A stretch of DNA of 63,701 nt from Haloarculaceae archaeon (GCA_036626395.1 JAZKRZ010000001.1:1-63701); one strand, 5' to 3'. Positions 21,875 to 42,451 are shown, counted from the first letter of the stretch. A program made the numbers and translations. Notes: generated by a model from the letters alone, not told the origin.

Positions 21875-22039
21875 TTACCGGGTCGGTTCGACCGTCGTGT
21901 CGGTCGCGATCCAGCCGTCGCCGTTCCCGGATTCGGTAAACACCGTTCGTTCCTCGGACGTGGAGTGCGCCCTGACCAGCGGCCGCTCGTCCTCAACGGT
22001 CGGCGTCCGGTCGTTGGGCGGCCCGTCCGTCGTTTCCAT
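21875..22039 (-). CDS. Small acidic protein (54 aa), hypothetical; below the ORF-track cutoff
   Basis: Hand translation gives METTDGPPNDRTPTVEDERPLVRAHSTSEERTVFTESGNGDGWIATDTTVEPTR. It has haloarchaeal composition, and a TATA-like AATAAG lies about 27 nt upstream. Confidence 0.45.
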   Translation of the reverse strand: METTDGPPNDRTPTVEDERPLVRAHSTSEERTVFTESGNGDGWIATDTTVEPTR

Positions 22040-22046: not shown

Positions 22047-22062
22047 TTTAGGCGGACCTAAT
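22047..22062. promoter_or_regulatory. Palindromic motif site s1, TTTAGG-CGGA-CCTAAT
   Basis: 15/16 match to TTTAGG-N4-CCTAAA. Lies in the 78-bp divergent gap between the small ORF (22039) and the oxidoreductase (22118). Confidence 0.55.
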
Positions 22063-22117
22063 CGAATAAGAGTTCCGGTTCCCACACACTCATGCCCGCG
22101 AGTCTACTTGAGCGGAC

Positions 22118-23215
22118 ATGGACCCGCTCACCGTCGGACTCGTCGGCTGTGGCAACATCAGCGAGCGCTACCTCACGCACGACGCACACCTCGACGCGTT
22201 CGAGATCGAGGTCTGTGCCGACCTGGATGCCGAACGCGCCGAACGGACCGCCGACGAGTTCGACGTCGAGGCCCGGGGCGTCGAGGAACTGATGGACAGC
22301 GACGACGTCGAGGCGGTACTCAACCTCACGCCACCGTTCGCTCACGCCGAGGTCTGCCTTCAGGCGCTCGAGGCCGGCAAACACGTCTACACTGAAAAAC
22401 CCCTGGCGACGGAGAGAGGGGACGCGGCCGAGATAGTCGAGACGGCCGCGGAGAGAGGCCTGTTCGTCGGCGCGGCCCCCGACACGTTCCTCGGGGCCGG
22501 CCTGCAGACCGCGCGTTCGGTCATCGACGAGGGGGGGATCGGCGAACCCCTCGGCGCGACGGCCGTCTGGAGTTCCCCGGGCCACGAGCACTGGCACCCG
22601 GACCCCGACCTGTTCTACGCGGAAGGCGGCGGTCCCGGCCTCGACATGGGACCGTACTACGTAACCGCGCTCGTTGCCCTCCTCGGTCCCGCCGAGCGCG
22701 TCGCCGGAACGGTCGGCCAGCCCCACGACGAACGCGAGATCACCAGCGGCTACCGCGAGGGCGAGTCAGTCGGCGTCGAGGTGCCCACGCACGAGTCGGC
22801 GACCCTCGACTTCGGCGACGGGGTTACCGCCAACCTCCTCTTCAGTTTCGACGTCGCGGCCTCGACGTTCCCGATGCCGGCCTTCGAGATATACGGCACC
22901 GAGGGGACGCTCGCGCTTCCCGACCCCAACCACTTCGAGGGGCCCGTCCGGGTTCGCGGGCGGACGGACGACGAGTGGGAGGAGGTACCGCTGACCCACG
23001 ACTACACGACCGGCCGCGGTGGGGGGCTCGTCGACCTCGCCTACGCCGTCCGTTCGGACTGGGAACAGCGCGCGAGCGGGCGCCTCGGGCGACACGTCCT
23101 CGACATCCTGCTGGGGATCCGCTCGTCGGCCGAGGCAGGCGTCTACGACGACCTGGAGACCGAACTGGAGCGACCGGCCGCTCTCCCCCCTGCGTTTCCT
23201 GACCGGTCGGCGTAA
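22118..23215 (+). CDS. Gfo/Idh/MocA-family NAD(P)-dependent oxidoreductase
   Basis: N-terminal VGLVGCGNIS Rossmann motif and the EKP motif (YTEKPLA). Confidence 0.85.
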   Translation: MDPLTVGLVGCGNISERYLTHDAHLDAFEIEVCADLDAERAERTADEFDVEARGVEELMDSDDVEAVLNLTPPFAHAEVCLQALEAGKHVYTEKPLATERGDAAEIVETAAERGLFVGAAPDTFLGAGLQTARSVIDEGGIGEPLGATAVWSSPGHEHWHPDPDLFYAEGGGPGLDMGPYYVTALVALLGPAERVAGTVGQPHDEREITSGYREGESVGVEVPTHESATLDFGDGVTANLLFSFDVAASTFPMPAFEIYGTEGTLALPDPNHFEGPVRVRGRTDDEWEEVPLTHDYTTGRGGGLVDLAYAVRSDWEQRASGRLGRHVLDILLGIRSSAEAGVYDDLETELERPAALPPAFPDRSA

Positions 23216-23292
23216 CCCCACTCCCGAGCGCCTGCCATCCTCGACGCGACGGCAGTGGGACATTTATCCCGTCGCCGCTCGAAGGGCGGGTA

Positions 23293-24162
23293 ATGTCCGA
23301 CCGCGACTCCGGCGAGGACCTCTCGAAACTCGTCGCCGAACTCGTGCGGGCCCTGGAGGACCTGGAAAACGAACTGGACCCTCCGGAGGACCGCCCGCTT
23401 CGCCCGCCCAGACCCAGCGAGTTGCGCCTGTTCGCCAGCGACGTGGCCATCCCCGGACTGATCCTCGTCTTGGAGTCGAACATCCGGGCGCTCCGACTCC
23501 TCCAGCGCGCGCTCCGACTCTCCGAGCGGACCGAACGCACCCGCCGCGAGAGCGCCGACCTCGGACGCCGGGCCCGCGACGTCAGCGAGACCACGCTGGA
23601 GCGACTCGACGACGCGCTGGTCGACCTCCAGGACGCCGTCGAGGGGCGACCGAACGACGAGGAAGCCGCCGACCTGCTGGCCGACGCGCGCGAGCTGCGT
23701 TCCGAGGTCCAGACCCGTCTCCGCGAGTACGCGGACGACGCCGCCCAGCGCGCCCGCGGGTCGGGTGACACCGGGGCCACGGACGACGGCGCTGTCGACA
23801 TCGCCGTCGGCGACCCCGGCGCGGATGACCCGGAGGCGGTCGACGACGGGAGCGACGGGACCGACGCCGGGGACCCCGACGACCAGGAAGCGTCGGAAAC
23901 CGGCGACAACGTCGCCGACGCGGACGGAGACGTCGCGGTCGACGTCGACGCGGAGCTCGAGTCGATAAAGCGCGAACTCGACGGTGACGGAGCGGACGCC
24001 GACGAGCAGACGGGTGCGGCGGAGGACGGCGCGGCCGACGGAGATGACGGCGACTCGGAACAGACCGGGGCAGACGCCGAACCGGCCGAGAGCGACGCCG
24101 ATACCGCGGACGATGACGACGGCACCGGGTCGGACCCGCCGGCCGACGAGAACCCGACCTAA
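23293..24162 (+). CDS. Acidic coiled-coil/low-complexity hypothetical protein (289 aa)
   Basis: Structured N-terminal half, and a C-terminal half that is extremely Asp/Glu/Ala/Gly rich. Confidence 0.6.
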   Translation: MSDRDSGEDLSKLVAELVRALEDLENELDPPEDRPLRPPRPSELRLFASDVAIPGLILVLESNIRALRLLQRALRLSERTERTRRESADLGRRARDVSETTLERLDDALVDLQDAVEGRPNDEEAADLLADARELRSEVQTRLREYADDAAQRARGSGDTGATDDGAVDIAVGDPGADDPEAVDDGSDGTDAGDPDDQEASETGDNVADADGDVAVDVDAELESIKRELDGDGADADEQTGAAEDGAADGDDGDSEQTGADAEPAESDADTADDDDGTGSDPPADENPT

Positions 24163-24220
24163 AAAGTAAAAAATTATTCATAATGATTTATTATCCCACA
24201 CCGCATTGGGGGTAACACGC

Positions 24221-24715
24221 ATGTCCCAGACAACCTGCGGGACGCGTGCACGGCTCCACGTCAGGAAAACGCTGCCGACACCGGTTCGCGGCCGTCGCGA
24301 ACGGGTCACGGACCGGCTCTCGGCGCTCGTAGCCGACGGTTCCCTCGCGGAGTTCGACGTCGTCCCCTGGGACAAACGGATCCCGTGTGACGGGTCGGGC
24401 GACCCGGAGACGAGGGACGCCTACCTGGCGTTTTCCGGGTGGGCCGACAGCGAGGACGTCAGCCTGTCCCCGTTCTTCGAGACGCGGGAGTGTTACTCCT
24501 GGGAGACCGGCGAGCGCGGAACGTGGGTCGTCCTGCCGGCGCTCTGCTTGTCGGTCTACGAGGGCGACGACCTCGCCGCGGTCTACCCGCACAGGGACGG
24601 CGACTCCTACGAGTCGGTCTGGACGGGCATCGAGTCGCTGGACGACGGGGAAAACCGGAACGACCGGGACCACGCCGCCGACCGCGACACGGTCGTGGTC
24701 GGACCGACACGCTGA
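24221..24715 (+). CDS. Conserved-looking hypothetical protein
   Basis: ATG at 24221 lies about 30 nt after an AT-rich TATA region (24165-24195). The stop TGA at 24713-15 abuts MITE B2. Confidence 0.6.
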   Translation: MSQTTCGTRARLHVRKTLPTPVRGRRERVTDRLSALVADGSLAEFDVVPWDKRIPCDGSGDPETRDAYLAFSGWADSEDVSLSPFFETRECYSWETGERGTWVVLPALCLSVYEGDDLAAVYPHRDGDSYESVWTGIESLDDGENRNDRDHAADRDTVVVGPTR

Positions 24716-24824
24716 TACGGACCGTTGTACCCATTTTCGGCGATGCCGCCGACGTATGGGCGAGTTACGGTCCGATGCGTTCACTGTGGTTCGCGACGGT
24801 GGTAACGAATTACAACGGTCCGTA
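24716..24824 (-). mobile_element. MITE-like element, family B, copy B2 (109 bp, inverted relative to B1)
   Basis: Same inverted repeats. Flanked by direct TGA (24713-15 and 24825-27). The left TGA is the stop codon of the upstream ORF. Confidence 0.85.
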
Positions 24825-24852
24825 TGAGTCACTCTCGGAACGAAATCGGAAC

Positions 24853-25233
24853 TCAGACCGGGTCGAACCGGTAGCCGTCCCAGTCGGTGCTCTCGGGGGT
24901 TTTCAGTCCAACGTCCGGGTCGCGCAGTTCCTCGACGTAGACCGGTTCGACGCCGTCGCCGGTCTCGACTCCGTCGGTCGTGACCTGTCCGATGGCCCGG
25001 ACGTGTTCGTCCCCCTCGACGGCGTCACTGACGTCGAACTCGACGATCGCGAGCGTGTTCGGTTCGCGAACACCCGGCGGCGTCGCCGTGCTCGTCGTCC
25101 AGGTGACGACCTCGCCGGTCCGCTCGCTCAGGTCCACCGTCGCCGACTGTTCCTCGCCACACTCCGGACACAGCGCGTGTCCGGGGTAACTCGCGTGCCC
25201 GTTCGGACAGACGTGGGCGTCGAAAGACGTCAT
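24853..25233 (-). CDS. Zn-ribbon/OB-fold protein (DUF35), thiolase partner
   Basis: C-x4-H...C-x2-C zinc ribbon (CPNGHASYPGHALCPEC) followed by an OB fold. 4-nt overlap with the thiolase gene. Confidence 0.8.
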   Translation of the reverse strand: MTSFDAHVCPNGHASYPGHALCPECGEEQSATVDLSERTGEVVTWTTSTATPPGVREPNTLAIVEFDVSDAVEGDEHVRAIGQVTTDGVETGDGVEPVYVEELRDPDVGLKTPESTDWDGYRFDPV

Positions 25234-26378
25234 CGTGCCTCCATGACGGTGGTGATGACGCAATTGCCGAACCCGCCGACGTTACACGCCAGGGCCGTGT
25301 CGGCCTCGACCTGTCGCGGGCCGGCCTCGCCGACGAGCTGTTTGTATATCTCGTACCCCTGCGCGACGCCACTCGCACCGAGCGGGTGCCCCTTCGATTT
25401 CAGCCCGCCCGAGGTGTTGACCGGCAGTTCGCCGTCCTTCTCGGTGCGGCCGTCCTCGACCTGTTTCCACGCTTCGCCCTGCTCGGCGAAGCCACAGCCC
25501 TCCATCTGCAGGAACTCGAGGATGGTGAACATGTCGTGGAGTTCGGCCACGTCGACGTCCCCGGGGCCGATACCGGCCATCTCGTAGGCCCCGCGGCTCG
25601 ACTCGACGACGCCCCCCATGACGGTGGGGTCGTCGCGCTCGTGGACGACGTGGGTGTCCGTCGCCCCGTCGATGCCCGTGATGACCGCGTAGTCGTCCGT
25701 GATCTCCCGGGCGCGCTCCTCCGTCGTGAACACCAGTCCCGCGCTCCCGTCCGTGATGGGACAGAAGTCATAGAGCCGCAGCGGATCGGCGACCATCGGG
25801 CTCTCCAGGGCAGTGTCGACGTCGATCTCCTTCCGGAACTGCGCGTGGGGGTTGTCGACGCCGTTACGGTGGTTCTTGACGGCGACTTTCGCGAGTGAAT
25901 CGCGGGGCGCGTCGAAGCGTTCGAGGTAGTGACGTGCGGTCAGTCCCGCGAAGGAGGGGAGCGTGAGGCCGTGTTTGTACTCGACGGGGTGGGTGATCGA
26001 GGCGATGACGTCCGTCGCCTCGGCGGTCGTCTTGTGCGTCATCTTCTCGCCGCCGACGAGCAGCGTCAGGTCGCTGGCACCCGAGGCGACCGACTGCCAG
26101 GCCTCGTAGATGCCCGCGCCGCCCGACGAGGAGGTCTGGTCGACCCGCTCGCTGTAGGCCGGGATGACGCCCAGGTCGTGGGCGAGCGCGTTCATCACCC
26201 CGGTCTGGCCCTGGAACTCGCCGCTGGCCATGTTCGAGACGTAGAGGTGCTCGACGTCGTCGGGTTCGATGCCCGCGTCGTCGAGCGCCGCCACGCCCGC
26301 CTCGGCCAGGAGCTCCTGTATCCAGGCGTCGCGGCGCCCGAACTGCGTCATCGAGGCACCGATCACTGCGACTGTCAT
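25230..26378 (-). CDS. Thiolase (archaeal acetyl-CoA acetyltransferase type)
   Basis: MTVAVIGASMTQFG start; thiolase motifs (CPITDGSAG, NTSGGLKSKGHPLGASG). Trimmed from the 432-aa track ORF. Confidence 0.85.
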   Translation of the reverse strand: MTVAVIGASMTQFGRRDAWIQELLAEAGVAALDDAGIEPDDVEHLYVSNMASGEFQGQTGVMNALAHDLGVIPAYSERVDQTSSSGGAGIYEAWQSVASGASDLTLLVGGEKMTHKTTAEATDVIASITHPVEYKHGLTLPSFAGLTARHYLERFDAPRDSLAKVAVKNHRNGVDNPHAQFRKEIDVDTALESPMVADPLRLYDFCPITDGSAGLVFTTEERAREITDDYAVITGIDGATDTHVVHERDDPTVMGGVVESSRGAYEMAGIGPGDVDVAELHDMFTILEFLQMEGCGFAEQGEAWKQVEDGRTEKDGELPVNTSGGLKSKGHPLGASGVAQGYEIYKQLVGEAGPRQVEADTALACNVGGFGNCVITTVMEAR

Positions 26379-26482
26379 GCCCGGAGCCTCGGAGGGCTCT
26401 GTTGTGGGTGTTACGGTCCCGCGAGTCCCGCTCCGAGCACACCTGCCGTCGTCGCGATGAACGTGCGTCGGTCCATACCTGG

Positions 26483-26498
26483 TTTTGGCTGGCCTAAA
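26483..26498. promoter_or_regulatory. Palindromic motif site s2, TTTTGG-CTGG-CCTAAA
   Basis: 15/16 match, 105 nt upstream of the thiolase ATG. Confidence 0.45.
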
Positions 26499-26517
26499 AG
26501 ATTCAAACCGTCCTATC

Positions 26518-26533
26518 TTCAGGTACACCTAAA
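26518..26533. promoter_or_regulatory. Palindromic motif site s3, TTCAGG-TACA-CCTAAA
   Basis: 15/16 match, centred 35 bp from s2. Confidence 0.45.
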
Positions 26534-26591
26534 TCAATGGGGGTCCGTGGCAGGCGCCGCGGGAGTCATCGGCGATAGAGACGGTGACGGG

Positions 26592-26942
26592 TCAGTAGAA
26601 CGACCGGGCGGCGGCCTTCCACTCCTCGCCGCGCTCGACGTCGTCGGGCCAGTGGCGCTTGCCGACCGATTTCATGCGGGCCGCCAGCGTCCACTCGTCG
26701 GCGCGGTCGGGCTTTCGCTGCCGTTCGCTCGCGGCCGCCGCGGCCGCCCGGACCCTGTCTGTCAGGTGGGCCCCGACCGCCGTGGCGATGGCCGCGGCCT
26801 CCTCGCTGTCGGCGTCGGCCGGCAGCGTCGTCGAGACCGTCTGACCGTCGACGGTCACGACCACTGTTTCGCCGTCCGGCGCATCTGCTCGTCGACCCCC
26901 GCCTTCGTTCGCCGTCTCCTCGCTCAGTTCGATGTCCATCAC
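26592..26942 (-). CDS. pccX: Small acc-operon protein (PccX-like subunit of propionyl-CoA carboxylase)
   Basis: Small protein immediately downstream of, and overlapping, the carboxyltransferase gene. This arrangement is described for Haloferax pccB-pccX. Confidence 0.6.
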
Positions 26943-28540
26943 AGGGGGATGTTGCCGTGGTCTTTCGGCGGGCTGTCCTCGCGTTTCCCCGCCAGCATCT
27001 CGAGGTCCCGGACCAGGCGCTTGCGGGTGTCCTTCGGTTCGATGACGTCGTCGAGATACCCGCGCCTCGCCGGGCCGTAGGGGTGGGCGAACTCCTCACG
27101 GAACTCGTCCATGAGTTCCTGTCGGCGGGCGTCGGTGTCCTCGGCCTGCTGGAGTTCCTTCCGGTAGAGGATGTTCACGGCCCCCCGCGGACCCAGCACC
27201 GCCATCTCCGAGCCCGGCCAGGCGTAGTTGACGTCCGAACCGAGGAACTTCGAGGACATGACGATGTACGCGCCGCCGTAGGCCTTGCGGACGACGACCG
27301 AGAGGAGGGGCACCGTCGCCTCGGCGTAGGCGTAGATGAGCTTCGCGCCGCGACGGATGATCCCGTTGTGTTCCTGCTCGGTGCCGGGCATAAACCCCGG
27401 GACGTCGACGAGCGTGAGGATCGGGACGTTGAATGAGTCACAGAAGCGAACGAACCGCGCGGCCTTCTCGGAGGCGTCGATGTCCAGCGTGCCCGCGCTC
27501 ACGCGGGGCTGGTTGGCGACGATGCCGACGACGCGCCCGTCCATGCGGGCGAAGCCGACGACGACGTTGCGCGCCCAGTTGCCGTGGGTCTCGAAAAACG
27601 AGTCCTCGTCGACCAGCCGGTCGATGACAGCCGTCATGTCGTAGGGCTTTCGCGGCGCTTCCGGGACGATCTCCGTTACGTCGGTCAACTCCCTGTCGGG
27701 GTCGTCCCACGAGGGTACCCGCGGCGGGTCCGCGAGATTGTTCGCGGGGAGATACGAGAGCAGTCGCCGGATGCGGTCGAGGGCCGCTTCCTCGCTCCGG
27801 CAGGCGAAGTGGGCGACGCCCGATTTCGAGGAGTGGGAACCGGCACCGCCGAGTTGCTCCTTGGAGACCTGCTCGCCGGTGACCGTCTCGATGACGTCCG
27901 GGCCGGTGATGAACATGTGCGACGTGTCCTCGACCATGAACGTGAAGTCGGTCAGTGCCGGCGAGTACGTCGCACCGCCGGCACACGGCCCCATGATCGC
28001 CGAGACCTGGGGGACGAGTCCGGAGGCCTTCGTGTTGCGCTCGAAGATCCGCGCGAACCCGGCGAGCGAGTCGACGCCCTCCTGGATGCGCGCGCCGCCC
28101 GAGTCGTTGATGCCGACGACGGGGACGCCGTTGTCGATGGCGCGGTCCATGACCTTGCAGACCTTGTCGGCGACGGCCTCCCCCACTGAACCGCCGAGCA
28201 CGGTGAAATCGTGAGCGAAGACGAATATCTTGCGGCCGTCGACCTCCCCGTAGCCGGTGACGACGGCGTCGCCGGGGAACTCCTTGTCGGCCATCCCGAA
28301 GTTCGTCGAGCGGTGCTCGACGAACGGGTCGACCTCCACGAAGGTGTCCTCGTCCAGCAGGTACTCGATGCGCTCGTGGGCGGTCATCTTCCCCTGGTCG
28401 TGCTGGCGCTCGATGCGGTCCTCGCCGCCGCCGCGACGGGACGCCCGGCGGCGCCGCCGGAGTTCCCCCAGCGGTGATTCCCCGTCCCGCCCGCTGGACC
28501 GACCCGCCGGATCGGCGTCTTCGGTACCCTCCTGGCTCAT
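26939..28540 (-). CDS. pccB: Acyl-CoA (propionyl-CoA) carboxylase carboxyltransferase subunit
   Basis: Typical carboxyltransferase sequence ([32 protein letters not shown]). ATG at 28538-40 chosen, 1 nt after the fabG stop. Confidence 0.85.
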
Positions 28541-28541
28541 C

Positions 28542-29309
28542 CTACCACTCCATGCCGCCGTTGACACCGAGCACCTGGCCGGTCATGTACGCCGACTCCT
28601 CGCTGGCGACGAACGAGACGATCCCGCAGATGTCCTGGACCGTCGCGAACCTGTCCAGGGGGATGTCCCGCAGTATCTTCTCCTGGACGCGCTGGGGCAC
28701 CTCCTCCAGCATGTCGGTCTGGACGAACCCCGGCGCGATGCAGTTGGCCGTCGACCCCGTCGAGGCCATCTCCAGGGCGAGCGTCCGGGTGAACCCGAAC
28801 AGGCCGGATTTCGTCGTCGCGTAGTTGGCCTGGCCGTAGTTGCCCTGCTGGCCGACGACCGACGAGATGTTTATCAGGCGCCCGTGTTCGCTCTCGCTGA
28901 TGTCGTCGAAGAACGCTTTCGTGCAGTTGAACACGCCCCCCAGGTTGACCTCCATGACGCGGTTCCAGTCCTCGCGGGTCATGTTCTCGAACTTCTTGTC
29001 GACCGTGATGCCCGCGTTGTTGACGAGGACGTCGATCGACCCGACGTCGTCGTGGACTTTCTCGCGCATGGCCTCGACCTGGGCGAGGTCCGAGACGTCC
29101 GCCTGTGCCACCATCGCCGTTCCGCCGTCCTCGCGGATCCCCTCGACGACGGCCTCGGCCTCGGCGGCCGAGGACCGGTAGTTGACCACGACCGTCGCGC
29201 CCCGTTCGGCGAGGTCCCTCGCGATCCCGCGACCGATCCCGCGGGAACTCCCGGTCACCAGGCAGGTCCGCCCGTCCAGTCTCACGGGCGCGTCACCTCC
29301 AGTACGCAT
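28542..29309 (-). CDS. fabG: 3-oxoacyl-ACP / acetoacetyl-CoA reductase (SDR; FabG/PhaB-like)
   Basis: TGSSRGIG, NNAG and YATTK motifs. Trimmed to the ATG at 29307-09. Confidence 0.85.
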   Translation of the reverse strand: MRTGGDAPVRLDGRTCLVTGSSRGIGRGIARDLAERGATVVVNYRSSAAEAEAVVEGIREDGGTAMVAQADVSDLAQVEAMREKVHDDVGSIDVLVNNAGITVDKKFENMTREDWNRVMEVNLGGVFNCTKAFFDDISESEHGRLINISSVVGQQGNYGQANYATTKSGLFGFTRTLALEMASTGSTANCIAPGFVQTDMLEEVPQRVQEKILRDIPLDRFATVQDICGIVSFVASEESAYMTGQVLGVNGGMEW

Positions 29310-29486
29310 CGATCGTTCATCGTGTACCCCTATTCGCCAGTGGAAGCGGGTTAAGCGTTCCCCTTGGACAGGTGTCAGGTACCCCGTCACTGACCCTCAT
29401 TGTTCCTACGTGGGCAACCACCCGGCGCGTGCTTGCCGGACCACACCGCCCGTCGTCGCCGTCGCATCGAACCGTCGTTCCCCTTC

Positions 29487-29502
29487 TTTAGGGGAGCCTA
29501 AA
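29487..29502. promoter_or_regulatory. Palindromic motif site s4, TTTAGG-GGAG-CCTAAA (perfect)
   Basis: Perfect 6+6 inverted repeat with a 4-nt spacer, in the divergent gap between fabG and the GT75-like gene. Confidence 0.6.
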
Positions 29503-29512
29503 CGGAAGCTTC

Positions 29513-29528
29513 TTTAGGGATACCTAAA
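29513..29528. promoter_or_regulatory. Palindromic motif site s5, TTTAGG-GATA-CCTAAA (perfect), overlapping the probable TATA box of the GT75-like gene
   Basis: Perfect palindrome centred 26 bp from s4. The CCTAAAAA half ends 22 nt before ATG 29550, the position of a TATA box for a leaderless transcript. Confidence 0.6.
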
Positions 29529-29549
29529 AACAGGGCAGGTAGCCAGGAC

Positions 29550-30710
29550 ATGACACGCGACATCTGCGTGGTCGTGCCGACCATACGCGAGTACGAGTGC
29601 GTGCGAGCCTACGCCGAGAACGCCCGCGAACACGGGTTCGACCTCGACAGGACGGAGTTCGTCCTCGTCACCGAAGACTTCTGTGAGACGGCAGCGATGG
29701 AGGAGATGCTCGACGAGGAGGACCTCTCTGGCGAAGTCTTCGACGGCACGGCTCGCGAGCGGTGGTACCGCGAGCAGGGCATCGCGGAGCACGAACACGT
29801 CGTGCCCGCCGCGAGTCACGCCGAGACGAGTTTCGGCCTGCTGTACCTGTGGGCCGACGACTTCGAGTACGGCGTGTTCGTCGACGACGACACGCTTCCC
29901 CACCCCGACTACGACTTCTTCGGGCGCCACCTGCGCAATCTGGCCTACGAGGGCGAGGTCACGAGCGTCCGTTCGGACGAGCAGTGGGTGAACGTCCTCT
30001 ACCAGAACGCCGACGACCACGGCCTCTACCCGCGGGGGTACCCCTACAGCGCGATGGACGAAACCGTCGAGACCGGCGCCGAGTACGTCGACGACGTCGT
30101 CGCTTCCCAGGGGCTGTGGACCAACGTCCCGGACCTGGACGCGGTCCGCATCCTGATGGACGGGGACCTGCGCGGCCAGGCCGAGACGCGCCTCGACGCC
30201 GACGACTACGACGGGGACTTCGTCGCCGCGGAAGGCCAGTATCTCACCGTCTGCTCGATGAACCTCGCCTTCCGGCGGGAGGTCGTGCCCGCGTTCTACC
30301 AGCTACCCATGGACGACAACCCCTGGGACGTGGGTCGCTTTGACGACATCTGGAGCGGCGTCTTCCTCAAGCGGGCCTGCGACCTGCTCGGCAAGCAGAT
30401 CCACAGCGGCGCGCCGCTCTGTGAGCACAACAAGGCGCCCCGCTCGACCTTCGGCGACCTCGTCAACGAGGTGCCCGCGCTGGAACTCAACGAGCACGTC
30501 TGGGAGATAACCGACGACGCCGGAAGCGGGGCCGACTCCTTTGGGGTCGCCTTCGAGGCGATGGCCGACGCCCTCGTCGACGCCGATGTCGACTACGAGA
30601 ACGCCGATTTCCTCGCGTACGTCGGCGAACACATGCACGACTGGTTGACCGCCCTGGAGACGCTCGAACCGGGGACCACGACCGTCGAGGCGGCGACGGC
30701 GGACGACTGA
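29550..30710 (+). CDS. GT75-like protein (reversibly glycosylated polypeptide / UDP-arabinopyranose mutase family homologue)
   Basis: N-terminal DICVVVPTIRE matches the RGP signature (IVIPTIRN). Also has a DDD motif (VFVDDDT) and RGP-like length. Confidence 0.6.
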   Translation: MTRDICVVVPTIREYECVRAYAENAREHGFDLDRTEFVLVTEDFCETAAMEEMLDEEDLSGEVFDGTARERWYREQGIAEHEHVVPAASHAETSFGLLYLWADDFEYGVFVDDDTLPHPDYDFFGRHLRNLAYEGEVTSVRSDEQWVNVLYQNADDHGLYPRGYPYSAMDETVETGAEYVDDVVASQGLWTNVPDLDAVRILMDGDLRGQAETRLDADDYDGDFVAAEGQYLTVCSMNLAFRREVVPAFYQLPMDDNPWDVGRFDDIWSGVFLKRACDLLGKQIHSGAPLCEHNKAPRSTFGDLVNEVPALELNEHVWEITDDAGSGADSFGVAFEAMADALVDADVDYENADFLAYVGEHMHDWLTALETLEPGTTTVEAATADD

Positions 30711-30747
30711 ACCGACAGAGATAACCGACGCAGGACGACCACACACA

Positions 30748-31977
30748 ATGACGGACGACGACTCAATGACCGACCGTATCGACGACAGAACGCGACGCCG
30801 GGTCCTCGCTGCAGGGTTCGCTGGCGCCACGGGCCTTCTCGCCGGCTGCCAGGGCGGCGGCGACTCGACGCCGACTGACAGCGGCGATTCGACCCCGCCG
30901 GACGACGGCGGCGACGGCAGTGACGGCTCTGACGGCGGCGACGTCGCACCGGTCTCGGGAGACCCGCCCTGGTACGGGTCCGGCCCCGGCGCGTTCGAGG
31001 CACGGCCGGTCCCCGGCGGCACCTCCATGGAGGAGATGCCCGACCTGTCGGGCTCGTTACGGGTCTTCTCCGGGCGTGGCGAGGGACTGGTCGGTGACCT
31101 CGTCTCCTATCTCGACGAGCGCTACGACGGTTTCGACCCTCGGGTCACGTACGACACGGCGTCGGCGCTGGCCCAGCGAATCGACACCGAGGGCGGGAAC
31201 ACGCCCGCCGACGTGTTCTACTCGGTCAACGCCGGCGCCCTGGGCTTTCTCGCCGAGAACGACCGGACCGAGGGTCTGCCGGACGCGACAACGTCACTGG
31301 TCGGCGAGGAGTTCCGCGATGCCGACGGCCAGTGGGTCGGCACCTCCGGGCGCGCCAGAACGGTCCCGTACAACACCGAGACCGTCTCGGAATCCGCGGT
31401 CCCCGACGACATCATGGCCTTCCCCGACCTCACCGAGTTCGAGGGGGAGATCGGCTGGGCACCCACCTACTCTTCGTTCCAGGGCTTCGTCACGGCGATG
31501 ATCGAACTCGAGGGCGAGGGGGCCACCCGGGAGTGGCTCAACGGAATGCAGGAGTTGAACGTCCAGGGGTACTCCGACGAGTTCGCCATCGCCCAGGCGG
31601 TCGCTGACGGCGACCTCGCACTCGGGTTCACGAACCACTACTACATCCAGCGCGTCCTCGCCGGTCGGCCCGAGGCGCCCCTCGCGACGGCGTTCACCGA
31701 GGGCGACGCCGGCAGCGTCTTCAACGTGGCCGGCGCCGCCCGGGTCGCCGCCAGCGACCGCCGCGAACAGGCCGACCTGTTCGTACGTCATCTCCTCGCT
31801 TCGGAGGCCCAGGAGTACTTCGCGGTCCGGACCTTCGAGTACCCCCTGGTCTCGGGCGTCGAACCCGTGGGTCGGCTCCCGAGCATCGAGGAACTGAACG
31901 TCCCCGACATCGACCTGTCGGCGCTGTCGAATCTGGACAGCACGGTTCGGCTGCTCCGCGACGAGAACGTCCTCTGA
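30748..31977 (+). CDS. ABC transporter substrate-binding lipoprotein, Fe(III)/FbpA-like, Tat-exported
   Basis: Twin-arginine motif TRRRVL followed by the lipobox LLAGC. Family-1 SBP sequence resembling iron(III)-binding proteins. Confidence 0.75.
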   Translation: MTDDDSMTDRIDDRTRRRVLAAGFAGATGLLAGCQGGGDSTPTDSGDSTPPDDGGDGSDGSDGGDVAPVSGDPPWYGSGPGAFEARPVPGGTSMEEMPDLSGSLRVFSGRGEGLVGDLVSYLDERYDGFDPRVTYDTASALAQRIDTEGGNTPADVFYSVNAGALGFLAENDRTEGLPDATTSLVGEEFRDADGQWVGTSGRARTVPYNTETVSESAVPDDIMAFPDLTEFEGEIGWAPTYSSFQGFVTAMIELEGEGATREWLNGMQELNVQGYSDEFAIAQAVADGDLALGFTNHYYIQRVLAGRPEAPLATAFTEGDAGSVFNVAGAARVAASDRREQADLFVRHLLASEAQEYFAVRTFEYPLVSGVEPVGRLPSIEELNVPDIDLSALSNLDSTVRLLRDENVL

Positions 31978-33599
31978 TGGCCGACACCGAGACCACGCCC
32001 GCGTCCGGACTGCGCGCCGCCAGGGAGGCACTCGCCTCCCGCGTGCTCGTCGTCCTCGCCGGGCTGGTCTCGGTCGTCGTCCTGCTCCCGCTGTCCTGGA
32101 TGGTCATCGCCGGCGGTCGGGTGCTACAGACCGGTGAAGTCGCCGCCATCCTCCTCCGTTCCCAGACGCTCGGTATCGTCGCCAACAGCCTCCTGCTGAC
32201 GGTCGTCGTGACCGGCGGGTCGATCCTGATCGGCGTCCCGCTGGCGTACCTCACGACCCGATGTAACCTCCCGTTCCGCCGGTCTGTCACCGTCGCCCTG
32301 GCGATGCCGCTGGTCATCCCCAGTTACATCGGCGCGTTCGCGTTCGCCTCGGCCTTCGCCCCCCGCGGCGAGGTCCAGTCGTTGCTCGAACCGTACGGCG
32401 TCGAGTCCATCCCCGGCATCTACGGGCTCCCCGGCGCGGCACTGGTCATCACTCTCTACACCTATCCCTACGTGTTCATCACCACCCGGGCCGCGCTCAA
32501 GTCGCTGGACACCAGGCTCGTCGACGCCGCGCGCACGCTCAGACACACGCCCTGGCAGGCGTTTCGCCGGGTGACACTGCCCCAGATACGCCCCGCCGTC
32601 TCGGCGGGGTCGTTGCTCGTCGCGCTGTACGCCATCTCCGATTTCGGGACGCCGGCCATCCTCCGGTACGACGTGTTCACCCGCGCCATCTACGTCGAGT
32701 TCAACGCCTTCGGCCGGGACACCGCGGCGATGCTCTCGGTCGTGCTCGTGCTCGTCACGTTCGGAATTTTGGCCCTGGAACGCCGCTACAGCGGCGGCGA
32801 CCACGTCGAGACGACCCGCGGACACGCCAGCGCGGCGCGCATCGACCTCGGTCGCTGGCGGTGGCCCGCTCTCGTCCCGTGTCTGGTCGTCGCGAGCCTC
32901 GCGCTCGTGGTGCCACTGGCCATCCTGGGACTCTGGCTCGTCCGCCCGAGCGGCGGGATGGCCATCGCCTTCGGCTTCGAACACGTCGCCAACTCCGTGG
33001 GCGTCGCCGCGGGAGCGGCCCTGGTCGCGGCCGTCGTCGGTCTCCCCATCGCCCACCTCTCGGCCCGCGGCGACTCCCGACTGGCGACGCTGTTCGAACG
33101 GGCCTCCTACGTCGGCTACGCCGTCCCCGGCATCATCGTCGGCATCGCGCTGGTCTTCCTGGGCGCGCGCTTCGGCGGTGACCTCTACCAGACCGGCGCG
33201 CTCGCGTTCCCGCTGCTCCTCTACGCCTACGTCGTCCGCTTTCTCCCCCAGGCCGTCGGCTCCACGCGCGCCTCGATCCTCCGTGTCAGCCCCGCGCTCC
33301 CGGAGGCCGCCCGGTCGCTCGGCCGGTCGCCCCTGGGCGCCTTTCGCTCGGTCACCCTGCCCCTCATAGCGCCGGGGCAGGTCGGCGGTGGCGCACTCGT
33401 CTTCCTCACGACGATGAAAGAACTCCCCGCGACGCTCATGCTCCGGCCCGCGGGGTTCGAGACGCTGGTCACGTTCGTCTGGCGGGCCGAGCGCTCGGCG
33501 GCCTACGGCTCCGCCGCGCTCCCCGCGCTGGTGCTCGTGCTCGTCTCCGCGTGCTCGATGCTCGTCATCCTGAGCATGGAAGGGTACAGCGTCGAGTGA
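31977..33599 (+). CDS. ABC transporter permease (duplicated FbpB-like, about 12 TM)
   Basis: 540 aa with two EAA-type permease repeats. Its start overlaps the SBP stop. Confidence 0.85.
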   Translation: MADTETTPASGLRAAREALASRVLVVLAGLVSVVVLLPLSWMVIAGGRVLQTGEVAAILLRSQTLGIVANSLLLTVVVTGGSILIGVPLAYLTTRCNLPFRRSVTVALAMPLVIPSYIGAFAFASAFAPRGEVQSLLEPYGVESIPGIYGLPGAALVITLYTYPYVFITTRAALKSLDTRLVDAARTLRHTPWQAFRRVTLPQIRPAVSAGSLLVALYAISDFGTPAILRYDVFTRAIYVEFNAFGRDTAAMLSVVLVLVTFGILALERRYSGGDHVETTRGHASAARIDLGRWRWPALVPCLVVASLALVVPLAILGLWLVRPSGGMAIAFGFEHVANSVGVAAGAALVAAVVGLPIAHLSARGDSRLATLFERASYVGYAVPGIIVGIALVFLGARFGGDLYQTGALAFPLLLYAYVVRFLPQAVGSTRASILRVSPALPEAARSLGRSPLGAFRSVTLPLIAPGQVGGGALVFLTTMKELPATLMLRPAGFETLVTFVWRAERSAAYGSAALPALVLVLVSACSMLVILSMEGYSVE

Positions 33600-33643
33600 G
33601 CCCACCTCGGCCCGTTTTCGGCTCTCGGGACGAACCCGATGGC

Positions 33644-33659
33644 TTTAGGGCACCCTAAA
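33644..33659. promoter_or_regulatory. Palindromic motif site s6, TTTAGG-GCAC-CCTAAA (perfect)
   Basis: Perfect palindrome in the 125-bp gap between the permease stop and the ATPase start. Confidence 0.6.
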
Positions 33660-33724
33660 TCGTATCGACACACAGATGGACGTTTCCGGACGGTCTCTGT
33701 GGCGGCGGGCACCGGGGTGGTCCC

Positions 33725-34930
33725 GTGTCCGATAGCCACGCCGGTTCGAAAGAGCGGGCGCGGGCGGGCCGGCCCGACGAGGACCCGGTCCTCGAACTCG
33801 ACGGCGTGACCAAGCGGTTCGGCGACGAACCCGTCGTCGAGGACATGGACCTGGCAGTCCGGGACGGGGAACTGCTCACTCTGTTGGGTCCGTCGGGGTG
33901 TGGCAAGACCACCACCCTCAGGCTCATCGCCGGTCTGGAGGAACCCGACGCCGGGGAGATCCGCCTCCGTGGCGAGCGCGTCGCCGGCGGCGACAGTTTC
34001 GTCGCGCCCGAGACTCGCGACGTCGGCATCGTCTTCCAGGAGTTCGCCCTGTTCCCGCACAAGACGGCCGCCGAGAACGTGGCCTTCGGTCTCCACGACC
34101 GCACCGAGACCGAACGCCGCGAGCGGGTCGACGAACTGCTGGACCTGGTTGGGCTGACCGAACACCGCGACAGCTATCCGGACGAACTCTCCGGGGGCCA
34201 GCAACAGCGGGTCGCGCTCGCGCGGTCGCTCGCGCCCGAACCGCAACTGCTCCTGCTCGACGAACCGTTCTCGAATCTCGACGTCGACCTCCGGGTACAG
34301 ATGCGCGAGGAGGTCCGCTCGATACTGAAGGCGGCGGGCGTCACCGCCATCTCCGTGACCCACGACCAGGAGGAGGCCATGTCGATAAGCGACCGGGTGG
34401 CCGTCGTCAGCAACGGCGCTATCGAACAGGTCGGCGACCCCGAGGAGGTGTTCCAGCACCCCGAGTCGCGCTTCGTCGCCTCGTTCCTCGGTCACGCGAG
34501 TTTCGTCTCCGGGGTCATCCGCGACGACTACGTCGACACCGGCCTCGGGAAGGTGCCCGTCGACCGCGTCCACGGCCTGACCGAGATTTACGACGGCGCG
34601 GAGGTCGACCTCCTCGTCCGTCCCGACGACGTCTCCGTCGAGAGCGTCCCGGACATCGAGGCCAACGGCGAAGTCGTCCACCGGCGGTTCCTGGGCCCGA
34701 GCGTCTTCTACCGGGTCGAACTCGACAGCGGCGATGTCGTCGGCTGTACCCACAACCACGAACACCGGGTCCCTCGCGACCGGCCGGTGCGCGTCGACCT
34801 CGACGCCGACCACGACCTCTCGTGGTTCCCCGACGACGTCGATACCGTGCCAGAGACCTTCGACAGTGGCCGCCACGCCGGAGAGACGCCCGACACCCGC
34901 GACCTGACCGTCGACCCCGTCGACGAGTAG
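33725..34930 (+). CDS. ABC transporter ATP-binding protein (FbpC/PotA-like with a C-terminal TOBE-type domain)
   Basis: Walker A GPSGCGKTT, signature LSGGQQQRV, Walker B LLLLDEP. GTG start. Confidence 0.85.
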   Translation: MSDSHAGSKERARAGRPDEDPVLELDGVTKRFGDEPVVEDMDLAVRDGELLTLLGPSGCGKTTTLRLIAGLEEPDAGEIRLRGERVAGGDSFVAPETRDVGIVFQEFALFPHKTAAENVAFGLHDRTETERRERVDELLDLVGLTEHRDSYPDELSGGQQQRVALARSLAPEPQLLLLDEPFSNLDVDLRVQMREEVRSILKAAGVTAISVTHDQEEAMSISDRVAVVSNGAIEQVGDPEEVFQHPESRFVASFLGHASFVSGVIRDDYVDTGLGKVPVDRVHGLTEIYDGAEVDLLVRPDDVSVESVPDIEANGEVVHRRFLGPSVFYRVELDSGDVVGCTHNHEHRVPRDRPVRVDLDADHDLSWFPDDVDTVPETFDSGRHAGETPDTRDLTVDPVDE

Positions 34931-34932
34931 CG

Positions 34933-37185
34933 ATGGGAGACGACCGCGGCGGAACCGTCGCCGGCCGCGTGACGACCGCGCTGGGCGGCCTCCGCCGGCG
35001 GGCCCGGCGTCGTCCCGCCACGGTCGCCATCGCCGTCCTCGCCGCGGCGGGCGCTGCGGTGGTCTTTTTCGTCGCTCACGACCTCTTTCCGTACCACTCG
35101 GTCAACCACGACGAGGGGGTCTACCTCCAGCAGGCCGCGATGTTCCTGGAGGGGAAACTCCTGCTCGAACCCCCCGTTCCCGAGGCGGTCCGTCCCTGGT
35201 TTTTCGTCGCCGACGACGGCCGACTCTACCCCAAGTACGGCCCCGGTACCGCGCTCGTGTTCGCGCCGGGCGTGGCGCTGGGCGTCCCCAGACTGGTCCT
35301 CGCCGCCGTCGCCGGAGTCTCGGCGGCCTGCGTCGGGCTCCTGGGACGGGCGGCCTTCGACGGTCGCGTCGGCGCCGTCGCGGCGGGCCTCCTCCTGACC
35401 GCACCGCTCTTCGTCGTCAATTCCGCCACCTTCCTCTCGTACGCTCCTACTACCGCTCTCAACCTCGTCTTCGCGCTGTCGTACGTCCGCGCGCTCCGCC
35501 GCCGGCGGCTCCGGTACGCTGCCCTCGCCGGCCTCGCGGTCGGGTTCGCCTTCCTGTCACGTCCCTACACCGCACTCCTGTTCGCGCTTCCGTTCGTCGT
35601 CCACGCGCTCGTCACGCTCGGGGGGGCGTGGTACCGTCACCGTCGCGTGACTGACGCGGAAAGCGACAGCGAGGGCCGTCACCCGCCGTGGGGCGTGACG
35701 CGACGGCTGGGCCTCGTCGCTGCGGTCGGCACCGCGTTCGTCGGCCTCACGCTCGGGTACAACTGGGTCCTGACCGGGGACCCGCTCGTCTTCCCCTACC
35801 AGGCGTTCGCCCCCGAGGACGGGGTCGGCTTCGGCCACCGTGAAATACTCGGCCACGAACGCGACTACACCGTCGAGGTCGCGCTCGACGCCAATCGCCG
35901 CGTTCTCCGGCAACTGGTCACGCGCTGGGGCCCGCTGGGCTGGCTCGGGTCCACGCTCGCGGCCGTCGGACTCGTCTCTTCCGTCGCCGGTCAGGTCGGG
36001 CGTCGACTCCTCGACCACCCGTCGGAACCCTCGAACGCGGGTGGCCGGCGCGCTGCCGGCGGGCCGCTGTCGGACCCCACCCTGCAGGCACTCCTCGCCG
36101 CGCTGTTCGTGACCGTCTCCCTCGGCAACCTGGCTTTCTGGGGCAACCTGAACGTCCTGGGTGCCGTCGAGGACCCGACGGACGGACTGGTCGCGTCCCT
36201 CGGCCCGTTCTACCACTTCGACCTCTTGCTCCCGCTCTCGGTGTTCGCCGGGGCGGGCGTCGTGACCGCCGGCGACCGTCTCCGTGCGCTCTCGCGGCGT
36301 CTGGACGGCCCCCTCGACCGGGCGGCAGTCAGAAACGGGGCGCTCGCTCTCGTCCTCGTAGCCGCACTCGCCGGCGGAGCGAGCGTGGGCGAGTCGGCGT
36401 TCGAAGACCCCGTGGACCGAAACGCGGAGTACCGGGATACCCTCGCGACAGTGTACGAGCCCTTCGAACGGACCGACCTCGAGAACGCGCTGGTGTTCGT
36501 CCCGACGCCGCTGGGGCCGTGGCTGAACCACCCGTTCCAGCGGCTCCGCAACGACCCCTCTTTCGACGGGGGGACGGTGTACGTCATGGACCGCGGTGCC
36601 GGGGGGGACGCCACCAGTCTCGCGGCGTTCCCCGACCGCACCCCCTACCGGTTCACGTACCGTGACGAGTGGTCGCCGTTCGAGACGGTGACACCGACCC
36701 TCGAGCGGCTCTCGGTACGCTCGGGGGACCGGCTCGACGTGTCGACGACCACCGGCGTGGTCGCCGGGGCCCAGACCGCTTCCGTCCGCGTCGCGGCCGG
36801 CGGCGAGACGCTCCACTACGGCGTCCAGCGCGTCGATGGACCCGCCGAGACGGTGAACTGGACCCTCTCTCCGGAGGGAGTCACGGTCGATTCGAGGGGG
36901 CTGCGGCGCTATAGCGGCGCGTCGTCGCTCGCACTGGACGGCCCGACGACGGTCACGCTCTCGGTCACGTACGTCCAGGCCGGGGGGGCGACGATCAGCT
37001 ACGTCCAGGAACTGACGGTACTCGGGACGGAGACGGGGGCGGGCGTGCGGGTCCTCTGGCCGCCGGAAGCGCGCGTCTGCCGACTCACGACCGACTGCGG
37101 GCGGGCTGGAACGTACCTCCCGGGGGGCGACTACGCGACCGGCGTCTCGCTGTCGACGAACCTGACCGGCACACAGGACGAGTGA
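34933..37185 (+). CDS. GT-C fold glycosyltransferase (PMT/ArnT, GT39/GT83-like), 750 aa
   Basis: The real frame begins at ATG 34933, 2 nt after the ATPase stop. The N-terminal half has about 10 or more TM helices, with a first-loop DE motif (NHDEGVY, codons at 35110-15). A large soluble C-terminal domain follows. No AglB WWDYG motif. Confidence 0.7.
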   Translation: MGDDRGGTVAGRVTTALGGLRRRARRRPATVAIAVLAAAGAAVVFFVAHDLFPYHSVNHDEGVYLQQAAMFLEGKLLLEPPVPEAVRPWFFVADDGRLYPKYGPGTALVFAPGVALGVPRLVLAAVAGVSAACVGLLGRAAFDGRVGAVAAGLLLTAPLFVVNSATFLSYAPTTALNLVFALSYVRALRRRRLRYAALAGLAVGFAFLSRPYTALLFALPFVVHALVTLGGAWYRHRRVTDAESDSEGRHPPWGVTRRLGLVAAVGTAFVGLTLGYNWVLTGDPLVFPYQAFAPEDGVGFGHREILGHERDYTVEVALDANRRVLRQLVTRWGPLGWLGSTLAAVGLVSSVAGQVGRRLLDHPSEPSNAGGRRAAGGPLSDPTLQALLAALFVTVSLGNLAFWGNLNVLGAVEDPTDGLVASLGPFYHFDLLLPLSVFAGAGVVTAGDRLRALSRRLDGPLDRAAVRNGALALVLVAALAGGASVGESAFEDPVDRNAEYRDTLATVYEPFERTDLENALVFVPTPLGPWLNHPFQRLRNDPSFDGGTVYVMDRGAGGDATSLAAFPDRTPYRFTYRDEWSPFETVTPTLERLSVRSGDRLDVSTTTGVVAGAQTASVRVAAGGETLHYGVQRVDGPAETVNWTLSPEGVTVDSRGLRRYSGASSLALDGPTTVTLSVTYVQAGGATISYVQELTVLGTETGAGVRVLWPPEARVCRLTTDCGRAGTYLPGGDYATGVSLSTNLTGTQDE

Positions 37186-37293
37186 TACTGTCGGACACAA
37201 GTACGTGAACACACTTGCTGGGAACACACTATCGAAACGCCCGTTCCGGGTCGAACGAGCCACCGACGGTGGCCTCACTTGTGTCCGACAGTA
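37186..37293 (+). mobile_element. MITE-like element, family A, copy A3 (108 bp)
   Basis: Flanked by direct TGA (37183-85 and 37294-96). The left TGA is the stop codon of the GT-C gene. Confidence 0.85.
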
Positions 37294-37406
37294 TGAGGAG
37301 GGGGCGGACAGCCGAGACGGCGTCAGCCTGCCTCCCCGGGAACCCCGTCGAGCCAGTCGGGCCGGACTATCGGCGCCGATACTGCGGAAAACCCGCGTCG
37401 CGGCGT

Positions 37407-38162
37407 TCAGCGGCGCCGCTCTTCGAAACCCACCCGCAGGATCGACTTCGCGATCGCGGCCCCGCCCACGAACGGGTCGAGTTTCGTCTCGCCCGTGCGC
37501 TCGTGATAGGGGATAGGGACCTCGCGAACGTCGTAGTCCCGCATGACCGGTCGCATGAGGAGTTCCGCCGAGAGGCCGGTGTTCTCGGTCCAGGCGATGG
37601 ACTCGACCACTTCGCGGCGGTAGGCTCGCATCCCGGTCGTCGTATCGCGGAGGCGCCGACCCACGAGCGCGCTCGCCAGCAGCGCGAAGGCGCGATTGCC
37701 TGCGCGGTTGAGCGCCGGCATCGAGTCCGCCCCCGGGGAGATCCGGTCGCCGCTGACGACGTCCGCGCCGTCGTTTATCGCCTTCAGGAAGCGGGGGAGT
37801 TCCTCCATCGGGTAGGTGTCGTCGCAGTCGGTGGTGACGACGACCGGTCTGTCGGCCGCCAGCAGCGCCGCCCGCACGGCCACGCCGTATCCCTGGGGGT
37901 CCTGTTCTATCACGCGCGCACCGTGGTCCCTCGCGACCTCCGGCGTCCGGTCGTCCGACCCGTCGACGCAGACGACCGACGCCCGCCCGTCGGTCACCGA
38001 ATCGATGTCCGACAGCACTGCCCCGACCGCAGCCTGTTCGTTGTACGTACCCATCACCACTGCGACGTCGTCGAACGTGAACTGACTCTCCCGCTCTCCG
38101 GTGTCGGGTCGCGCCCGTGGCTTTTCCCCGGGGTCGGCGCTCCGGCGCGTCGTGTCACTCAT
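37407..38162 (-). CDS. GT2 glycosyltransferase, dolichyl-phosphate hexose synthase-like (Dpm1/AglD/AglJ type)
   Basis: VVMGTYNE start of a GT-A fold, a DGSDD motif and a TDCDDTY (DxD) motif; 251 aa. Confidence 0.75.
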   Translation of the reverse strand: MSDTTRRSADPGEKPRARPDTGERESQFTFDDVAVVMGTYNEQAAVGAVLSDIDSVTDGRASVVCVDGSDDRTPEVARDHGARVIEQDPQGYGVAVRAALLAADRPVVVTTDCDDTYPMEELPRFLKAINDGADVVSGDRISPGADSMPALNRAGNRAFALLASALVGRRLRDTTTGMRAYRREVVESIAWTENTGLSAELLMRPVMRDYDVREVPIPYHERTGETKLDPFVGGAAIAKSILRVGFEERRR

Positions 38163-38195
38163 CGCTAGCCTATCACGACCCGACCCTCTTGAGTT

Positions 38196-38211
38196 TTTAG
38201 GTTCGCCAAAA
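38196..38211. promoter_or_regulatory. Palindromic motif site s7, TTTAGG-TTCG-CCAAAA
   Basis: 15/16 match, 34 nt upstream of the GT2 ATG and 27 nt downstream of the regulator gene stop. Confidence 0.5.
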
Positions 38212-42399: not shown

Positions 42400-42451
42400 C
42401 GGCGAGGACGATGCCGTCGAAACGAGTGCACGCATTCGAGGAGCGCCACTC

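Follow-up and report, generated by a model that had tools for sequence, protein, structure and literature searches.

A 63,701-nt stretch of DNA from a Haloarculaceae archaeon (GCA_036626395.1, JAZKRZ010000001.1:1-63701; the whole stretch is called the window here) carries seven copies of the 16-bp palindrome TTTAGG-N4-CCTAAA, named s1 to s7 (Table 1). Judging from their sequence, we consider it very likely that these are operators (iron boxes) of TroR, a haloarchaeal DtxR-family iron regulator that has been studied in Haloferax volcanii by chromatin immunoprecipitation sequencing (ChIP-seq), RNA sequencing (RNA-seq) and promoter mutagenesis (Martinez Pastor et al., Nucleic Acids Res 2024; PMC10783522). 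The motif, the regulator and the orthologous targets are already published, and the window provides further instances of them, which would belong to a genome-wide iron-starvation regulon and do not amount to a new local regulatory system.

A pattern search of the whole window for the palindrome with at most one mismatch returned exactly seven matches, three of them perfect and four with one mismatch in the arms, all with a spacer of 4 nt, which reproduced the list given in an original prediction made from the sequence of the window alone. No match occurred in any of 100 dinucleotide-preserving shuffles of the window. On a gene map built from third-position GC (GC3) together with Pfam and NCBIfam scans, 14.7% of the window was non-coding, and all seven sites fell inside that share, as the prediction had stated. 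Chance enrichment in the AT-richer intergenic DNA was ruled out as an explanation by an intergenic-only null (64.8% GC), under which 0.0045 sites were expected. Relaxing the search to three mismatches added two matches, at 36137 and 44545, which is chance level (2.0 expected). Using a weight matrix trained on 349 sites from related genomes, we obtained scores of 20.2–28.7 bits for the seven sites and of 3.9 bits for the next best position in the window, and the set of seven is therefore sharply bounded there. The claim that there is no further full copy thus stood, while a lone CCTAAAT near 62196, to which the prediction had also drawn attention, did not score as a site.

The TroR motif obtained from H. 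volcanii ChIP-seq data with MEME is TTTAGGC-NNN-CCTAAAANAN, i.e., TTTAGGC-NNN-CCTAAAA, in the paper (PMC10783522), and it is printed as TTTAGGCHDRCCTAAAANAW in the bioRxiv supplement. This is the same 16-bp palindrome of 6-4-6 architecture, TTTAGG(C)-N-(G)CCTAAA(A), and each of the seven window sites agreed with it to within one mismatch over the 12 arm positions. All seven carry GG and CC at arm positions 5–6 and 11–12 and are in this respect of TroR type. The SirR box of H. volcanii (manganese branch, TTTwGAnnnnTCwAAA) shares the 6-4-6 architecture and the T/A-rich outer bases but has GA and TC at positions 5–6 and 11–12, and a pattern search for the SirR-type box TTTwGA-N4-TCwAAA found no match in the window. 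The bacterial DtxR/IdeR iron box is a 19-bp element of the TTAGG-N9-CCTAA type, bound by two dimers per operator at bacterial promoters; it resembles the window sites in its TTAGG and CCTAA arms, in the protein family that reads it and in metal-dependent repression of iron uptake, but its arms stand 9 bp apart, as against 4 bp here. A predicted DtxR-family iron motif was likewise conserved 5′ of homologous iron-uptake genes across haloarchaea, although its equivalence to the present box rests on two later papers that cite the prediction (Leyn and Rodionov 2015).

In H. volcanii under iron sufficiency, TroR represses iron-uptake genes and activates dpsA, and in reporter assays the iron- and TroR-dependent repression of the HVO_B0047 promoter was lost when both of its motifs were mutated (PMC10783522). 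The two motifs of this promoter on pHV3 are TTTAGGCCTCCCTAAA and TTTAGGCGAGCCTAAC, 36 bp apart, the first lying 4 nt from the ATG. These validated tandem sites fit the 6-4-6 pattern with at most one mismatch, and the HVO_B0046/B0047 intergenic region holds two more perfect copies, upstream of the siderophore operon. Like the TroR sites of H. volcanii, which are intergenic and often come as tandem pairs at a distance of about 30 bp, the window sites are intergenic and promoter-proximal and include two tandem pairs, s2/s3 (35 bp) and s4/s5 (26 bp). The genes around them include ones that serve the uptake and storage of iron (a DpsA equivalog, an Fbp/Pot-type ABC transporter and a FhuD-like relic), which parallels the H. 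volcanii targets (the dpsA region, FhuD-like binding proteins, HVO_1704, HVO_1705 and HVO_1613).

The likeness of targets extends to individual promoters. In the tables of the bioRxiv supplement, the TroR ChIP peaks relevant to counterparts of the window genes are 12, 22, 23 and 24. Peak 12 lies in the HVO_0535/dpsA interval, peak 24 lies between HVO_1704 and HVO_1705 (an iron ABC binding protein), and peak 22 is that of HVO_1613 (GT2), which belongs to the high-confidence TroR regulon, rises by 1.21 log2-fold in the troR deletion and carries the motif TTTAGGTTTACCAAAA. HVO_1704 (RGP family) likewise has a ChIP peak, a matched motif, a place in the high-confidence regulon and a change of +1.57 log2-fold in the troR deletion, and HVO_1708 is listed as a glycosyltransferase of family 39. 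Family annotation, length and gene order suggest that HVO_1704 to HVO_1708 and HVO_1613 are the counterparts of the window's RGP-like, binding-protein, permease, ATPase, GT-C and GT2 genes, the GT-C match being by annotation and position only, and promoters of presumed orthologues are TroR-bound and TroR-regulated in the published data. HVO_1613 is taken as the GT2 orthologue from the common annotation and the common promoter box; the window GT2 scores 393 bits against the NCBIfam equivalog model NF041391 (cut-off 375). The present sites differ from those of H. volcanii in that they are predicted from sequence in an uncultured Halosimplex-like organism, in that the internal box of the ABC gene string (s6) lies between permease and ATPase and not between RGP and binding protein, and in that one tandem-box promoter (s2/s3) has lost its gene.

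Several points weigh against the assignment to TroR. A Pfam scan found no DtxR-family gene among the roughly 70 open reading frames (ORFs) that it covered in the window, and a TroR orthologue must therefore lie elsewhere in the genome than on this contig. Binding of such an orthologue to s1–s7 is a prediction for this organism. Each of 304 haloarchaeal genomes holds one to six DtxR paralogues, and the identity of the one that would read the sites here is carried over from H. volcanii. The motif lies about 100 nt upstream of start codons in the TroR paper (PMC10783522), whereas several sites here lie only 6–35 nt upstream. In Halobacterium salinarum, TroR bound idr promoters only under iron starvation, so that species may differ in the sign and the metal dependence of the regulation. 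The number of paralogues, and a network that is wired differently in Halobacterium and Haloferax, would also allow for another DtxR-family reader, such as an Idr-like protein, in place of the TroR orthologue, with the kind of element and its iron logic unchanged. We regard this as improbable: in H. volcanii, deletion of idr or sirR left regulation of the siderophore genes in place while deletion of troR abolished it (PMC10783522), and the SirR box departs from all seven sites at the GG/CC positions.

The motif was followed through 80 orthologous loci (1.53 Mb), fetched by alignment of the RGP-like protein with flanks of at most 10 kb per side, as far as the contig reached, from Halosimplex, Haloarcula, Halorientalis, Halorussus, Natrinema, Halopiger, Natronomonas, Halogranum, Halopenitus and other genera; the RGP-like protein is unusually conserved, with 72–88% identity across haloarchaeal families. 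These loci contained 160 perfect and 144 one-mismatch copies, with at least one copy in 77 of the 80, so that conservation at orthologous promoters, which the original prediction had proposed as a check, was clearly found. All but three of the copies (301/304) lay outside called genes, and those three are sites upstream of GT2 over which a crude gene caller had over-extended an ORF. Copies recurred just 5′ of RGP, between RGP and the binding protein, 5′ of GT2, beside the dpsA/DUF7331 pair, in the thiolase–pccX interval and 5′ of FhuD-like binding proteins, and in Natrialbaceae the genes for the permease and for a UPF0104-type membrane protein also had copies on their 5′ side; site-adjacent genes in the related loci encode Peripla_BP_2 proteins, an ABC ATPase and a multicopper oxidase. 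The logo of the 304 sites reads TTTAGG(C/T)NN(G)CCTAAA, with almost invariant arms and only a Y-NN-R preference in the spacer.

The sites of the window fit this distribution, with one deviation. Site s1 lies 7 nt 5′ of the DUF7331 ATG (22039, minus strand) and 55 nt 5′ of the Gfo/Idh/MocA ATG (22118, plus strand), and its orthologue is found between the DUF7331 and Gfo/DUF7547 genes, beside dpsA, in Halosimplex, Halorientalis and other loci. Site s4 lies about 97 nt 5′ of the divergent SDR/fabG-like ORF, and s7 lies 33 nt 5′ of the GT2 ATG (38162, minus strand). Site s6 sits between the stop of the ABC permease (33599) and the start of the ABC ATPase (33725), inside the transporter gene string, unlike the internal box of most other genomes, which lies between RGP and the binding protein. 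The genes that the original prediction had assigned to the sites were corrected for s6 and, as described below, for s2/s3.

The same prediction had described the sites as a local regulon bound by one of two regulators encoded next to s7, the DUF1724/FilR1-type protein or TrmB, a reading under which the palindrome would control local glycosylation and lipid genes and which we hold to be very unlikely. Both proteins have winged-helix domains, both genes adjoin s7, and the order GT2–site–FilR1-like–TrmB is kept in Halosimplex and Haloarcula loci. The regulon is not local, however, given that its motif is the published TroR motif at the same promoters across many genera, and the FilR1-like and TrmB genes adjoin s7 only in Haloarculaceae: Natrinema, Halopiger, Natronomonas, Halogranum, Halobaculum and others have the motif and the promoters in fetched loci that hold no homologue of either protein. 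Moreover, s7 lies 3′ of the FilR1-like gene, outside its promoter, and in H. volcanii the motif is bound by TroR and represses in a TroR-dependent manner. The TrmB operator, which we take from Halobacterium to be TACT-N7-8-GAGTA, differs from the palindrome in arms and spacing and had no match in a pattern search of the window. No regulators are encoded nearby other than the HTH_63, FilR1-like, TrmB and PRT-domain (GfcR-like) proteins, none of which the comparative data link to the motif.

Promoter architecture bears on how TroR would act. Haloarchaeal mRNAs are mostly leaderless, with the TATA box centred near −27. In 72 cases in the related loci, the end of the RGP-proximal box lies 11–22 nt ahead of the conserved ATG. 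In the window, s5 occupies −37 to −22, its end lying 21 nt ahead of the RGP-like ATG (29550); the RGP-proximal box therefore covers the TATA position. A CGACAG-like element lies 5–6 nt 5′ of this box and is kept, along with a TTT-rich hexamer, even where the palindrome is missing, as it is in a few species. Start-to-start spacings of tandem boxes across all loci fell into two classes, 26–27 bp (31 cases) and 35–36 bp (14 cases, including the validated pHV3 promoter), and the window has one pair of each. Between the boxes, we observed a BRE-like CGGAAG or CGACAG (BRE, transcription factor B recognition element) in the shorter class and a TATA-like hexamer in the longer one.

The s2/s3 promoter belongs to the longer class. 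Read on the minus strand, it consists of a box, AGATAGGAC, the TATA-like TTTGAA (26502-26507; −31 to −26), a second box, six bases and ATG GAC CGA CGC, so that s3 lies just 5′ of the hexamer and s2 between the hexamer and the start codon. This layout is that of HVO_B0047 (boxes 35 vs. 36 bp apart and 6 vs. 4 nt from the ATG), and the sequence aligns nearly base for base with Peripla_BP_2 (FhuD-like) promoters of Haloarcula and Halorientalis. The downstream half-site of the palindrome had been equated with the TATA box in the original prediction. At the RGP promoter this was correct insofar as the whole site covers the TATA position, but in most orthologues it is the upstream half-site that lies there, and at s2/s3 the TATA-like hexamer lies instead between the two sites.

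These arrangements also bear on the reading of the palindromes as TATA-like boxes that stand back to back in divergent promoters and have no regulator of their own, to which we give hardly any credence. TTTAGG does resemble the T/A-rich archaeal TATA box, one half-site occupies the expected TATA position of the RGP promoter, and s1 and s4/s5 lie between divergent genes; however, the genes that flank s2/s3, s6 and s7 share a strand, and the FhuD-type promoters have a TATA-like hexamer separate from the two sites. A TATA box would require neither the GG/CC positions nor the 4-nt spacer, both of which are essentially invariant in the 304 sites, and motif mutation abolishes TroR and iron control in H. 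volcanii (PMC10783522). A role in RNA, as a small hairpin, terminator or processing signal, can practically be dismissed: a 6-bp stem with a 4-nt loop could form, s3, s6 and s7 lie 3′ of genes and T-runs flank some copies, but three of four regions (s4/s5, s6 and s2/s3; z −0.8 to −1.3) fold no more stably than shuffled sequence, the s7 region (z −3.2) owes its stability to other pairing without the palindrome arms, one-sided mismatches that break the stem (TTTTGG..CCTAAA, TTTAGG..CCAAAA) are common, and most copies lie upstream of transcription start regions.

The suggestion that the palindrome is the operator of a dimeric winged-helix regulator overlapping or flanking the core promoter was thus borne out by the identity of the motif as TroR's and by the positions of the boxes. 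In the mechanism we propose, a metal-loaded TroR dimer would occupy each 16-bp site, with one winged-helix domain per TTTAGG half-site. The sites would overlap or bracket the region from BRE/TATA to the start of mostly leaderless promoters, whose transcription start sites are placed here by position relative to the start codons and are thus presumptive, and TroR bound under iron sufficiency would therefore block TBP, TFB or RNA polymerase. Under iron starvation TroR would be released and its targets induced. Besides GT2 and the DUF7331/Gfo pair, these are the RGP-like gene together with the GT-C gene and the ABC transporter of ferric type, and the promoter that once served the FhuD-like gene and now faces thiolase–DUF35. 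Repression by the metal-loaded regulator and induction on iron starvation is the direction established in H. volcanii, and it is by analogy the direction we would expect here.

The s2/s3 pair had been described as the promoter sites of the thiolase–DUF35 pair, but it lies 105–155 nt 5′ of the thiolase ATG (26378) and directly precedes another ORF; s3 also lies about 60 nt 3′ of the pccX stop. This ORF, at 26476-26411 on the minus strand with its ATG at 26476, 6 nt from s2, encodes 21 codons, MDRRTFIATTAGVLGAGLAGP, followed by a stop. It is the remnant of a twin-arginine translocation (Tat) signal from a decayed FhuD-like (Peripla_BP_2) gene that has lost its body; in related loci the orthologues that follow this promoter are intact and are Peripla_BP_2 proteins. 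The promoter of the relic is intact with both boxes, the thiolase ATG follows 95 nt further on, and the thiolase–DUF35 pair may have been captured by this iron-regulated promoter. In H. volcanii, the DUF35 protein HVO_0834 is 14-fold up in the iron-starvation proteome, and the thiolase HVO_0835 stands at +1.14 log2-fold in a sheet of the bioRxiv supplement that we take to compare low-iron with iron-replete RNA-seq in the parent strain.

Upstream of dpsA, about 25 nt 5′ of a TATA-like CCTTATG, lies a degenerate sequence, CACAGGTTTTCCAAAA, that may be an eighth box. Most of the 19 related loci compared have a conserved TTTTGG-N4-CC(A/G)AAA before dpsA with which it aligns, and its position fits a role of TroR as dpsA activator. 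The conserved dpsA start is probably the ATG at 21303 (MSTQ...), not that at 21273.

At s7, the 16-mer TTTAGGTTCGCCAAAA upstream of GT2 is invariant in many genera, while spacers vary at most other promoters. The s7 spacer, TTCG (CGAA on the GT2 strand), is part of this invariance, and the GT2 strand reads TTTTGG-CGAA-CCTAAAA. The GT2 promoter may also use the spacer and the proximal half-site as its BRE and TATA.

Loss of the box was also seen. In three loci (L008, L033 and L060, and at the RGP promoter also in L038, L046 and L057), RGP and its CGACAG...TTT promoter are kept and the palindrome is lost, as in Halocatena marina (TTTGGGTGATCCTAGA). In the species without the palindrome, the RGP gene seems to have left the iron regulon.

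Across many genera, the ferric-type ABC transporter is accompanied by the RGP/GT75-like gene, the PMT/GT39-like GT-C gene with DUF7846 and the dolichyl-phosphate hexose transferase GT2, all of them with TroR boxes. We tentatively propose, as something possible rather than probable, that the conserved core of the TroR regulon includes a complete dolichol-phosphate-dependent glycosylation module (RGP/GT75-like protein, HVO_1613-type transferase and GT-C), which is set within the gene string of the ferric-type ABC transporter, and that iron starvation induces a dedicated surface glycosylation needed for iron acquisition. Its substrate could be, for example, the Thr/Ser-rich linkers of the induced binding lipoproteins. 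The co-regulation of the glycosylation genes with the TroR regulon is already contained in the TroR paper's supplementary tables; the available passages of the TroR literature do not discuss a function of the module in iron homeostasis, and a literature search for RGP proteins in haloarchaea gave no match.

For the organism itself, an uncultured Halosimplex-like archaeon, the boxes mark the ABC transporter at 30748-34930 as a system for iron starvation. They also link iron status to the RGP-like, GT-C and GT2 genes, to the DUF7331/Gfo pair and, probably, to thiolase–DUF35. More broadly, a TroR box and promoter architectures kept across many genera, with two fixed tandem spacings and the box on or around the TATA position, support regulon-based prediction of function in Halobacteria.

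Table 1. Predicted iron boxes and neighbouring genes in the window (positions counted from its first nucleotide; scores from the weight matrix).
Feature	Position	Strand	Score or annotation
Possible eighth, degenerate box CACAGGTTTTCCAAAA	21227-21242		−0.4 bits
dpsA	21273-21848	+	DpsA equivalog by NCBIfam (ferritin)
Small DUF7331 gene	21875-22039	-	
s1, TroR-type box TTTAGGCGGACCTAAT	22047-22062		22.1 bits
Gfo/Idh/MocA oxidoreductase	22118-23215	+	
DUF7547 gene	23293-24162	+	
HTH_63 gene	24206-24715	+	
DUF35 gene	24853-25263	-	
Thiolase	25230-26378	-	
Relic of FhuD-like (Peripla_BP_2) gene	26411-26476	-	21 codons
s2, proximal box of tandem pair	26483-26498		25.0 bits
s3, distal box of tandem pair	26518-26533		20.2 bits; 35 bp from s2
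pccX	26592-26942	-	
pccB	26939-28567	-	
SDR/fabG-like gene	28542-29390	-	
s4, distal box of RGP promoter pair	29487-29502		23.1 bits; perfect
s5, proximal box of RGP promoter	29513-29528		28.7 bits; perfect
Target gene string, RGP to GT-C	29550-37185	+	
RGP/GT75-like gene	29550-30710	+	
ABC binding protein	30748-31977	+	
Fused ABC permease	31977-33599	+	
s6	33644-33659		23.9 bits; perfect
ABC ATPase	33725-34930	+	
GT-C/PMT-like gene with DUF7846	about 34933-37185	+	
GT2, dolichyl-phosphate hexose transferase	37407-38162	-	NCBIfam NF041391
s7, box TTTAGGTTCGCCAAAA	38196-38211		27.5 bits
FilR1/DUF1724-type regulator	38238-39080	-	winged-helix domain
TrmB	39299-40354	-	winged-helix domain
PRT-domain GfcR-like regulator	41695-42399		
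PfkB kinase	42452-43405		

Beyond s7, the interval 39299-43405 forms a sugar-metabolism neighbourhood of TrmB, a Gfo/Idh/MocA gene, the GfcR-like regulator and the PfkB kinase, and neither a TroR box nor a canonical TrmB box occurs within it.

In the related loci, we also observed boxes beside further conserved genes that are not part of the window's gene set (L020:8808, L064:8774, L057:14356-14445, L069:19232 and L082:8436), which encode a UPF0104/LPG_synthase_TM membrane protein, a Tat-exported multicopper oxidase, and an operon of gluconate-2-dehydrogenase subunit 3 with a GMC oxidoreductase. The UPF0104 protein HVO_1859 is 11.6-fold up in the iron-starvation proteome of H. volcanii. A Halobaculum plasmid carries the same gene string, in which PGAP annotates the permease as 'iron ABC transporter permease' and GT2 as 'dolichyl-phosphate hexose transferase', and it has boxes before RGP (in tandem, 27 bp), before GT2 and before the operon of gluconate-2-dehydrogenase subunit 3 and GMC oxidoreductase.

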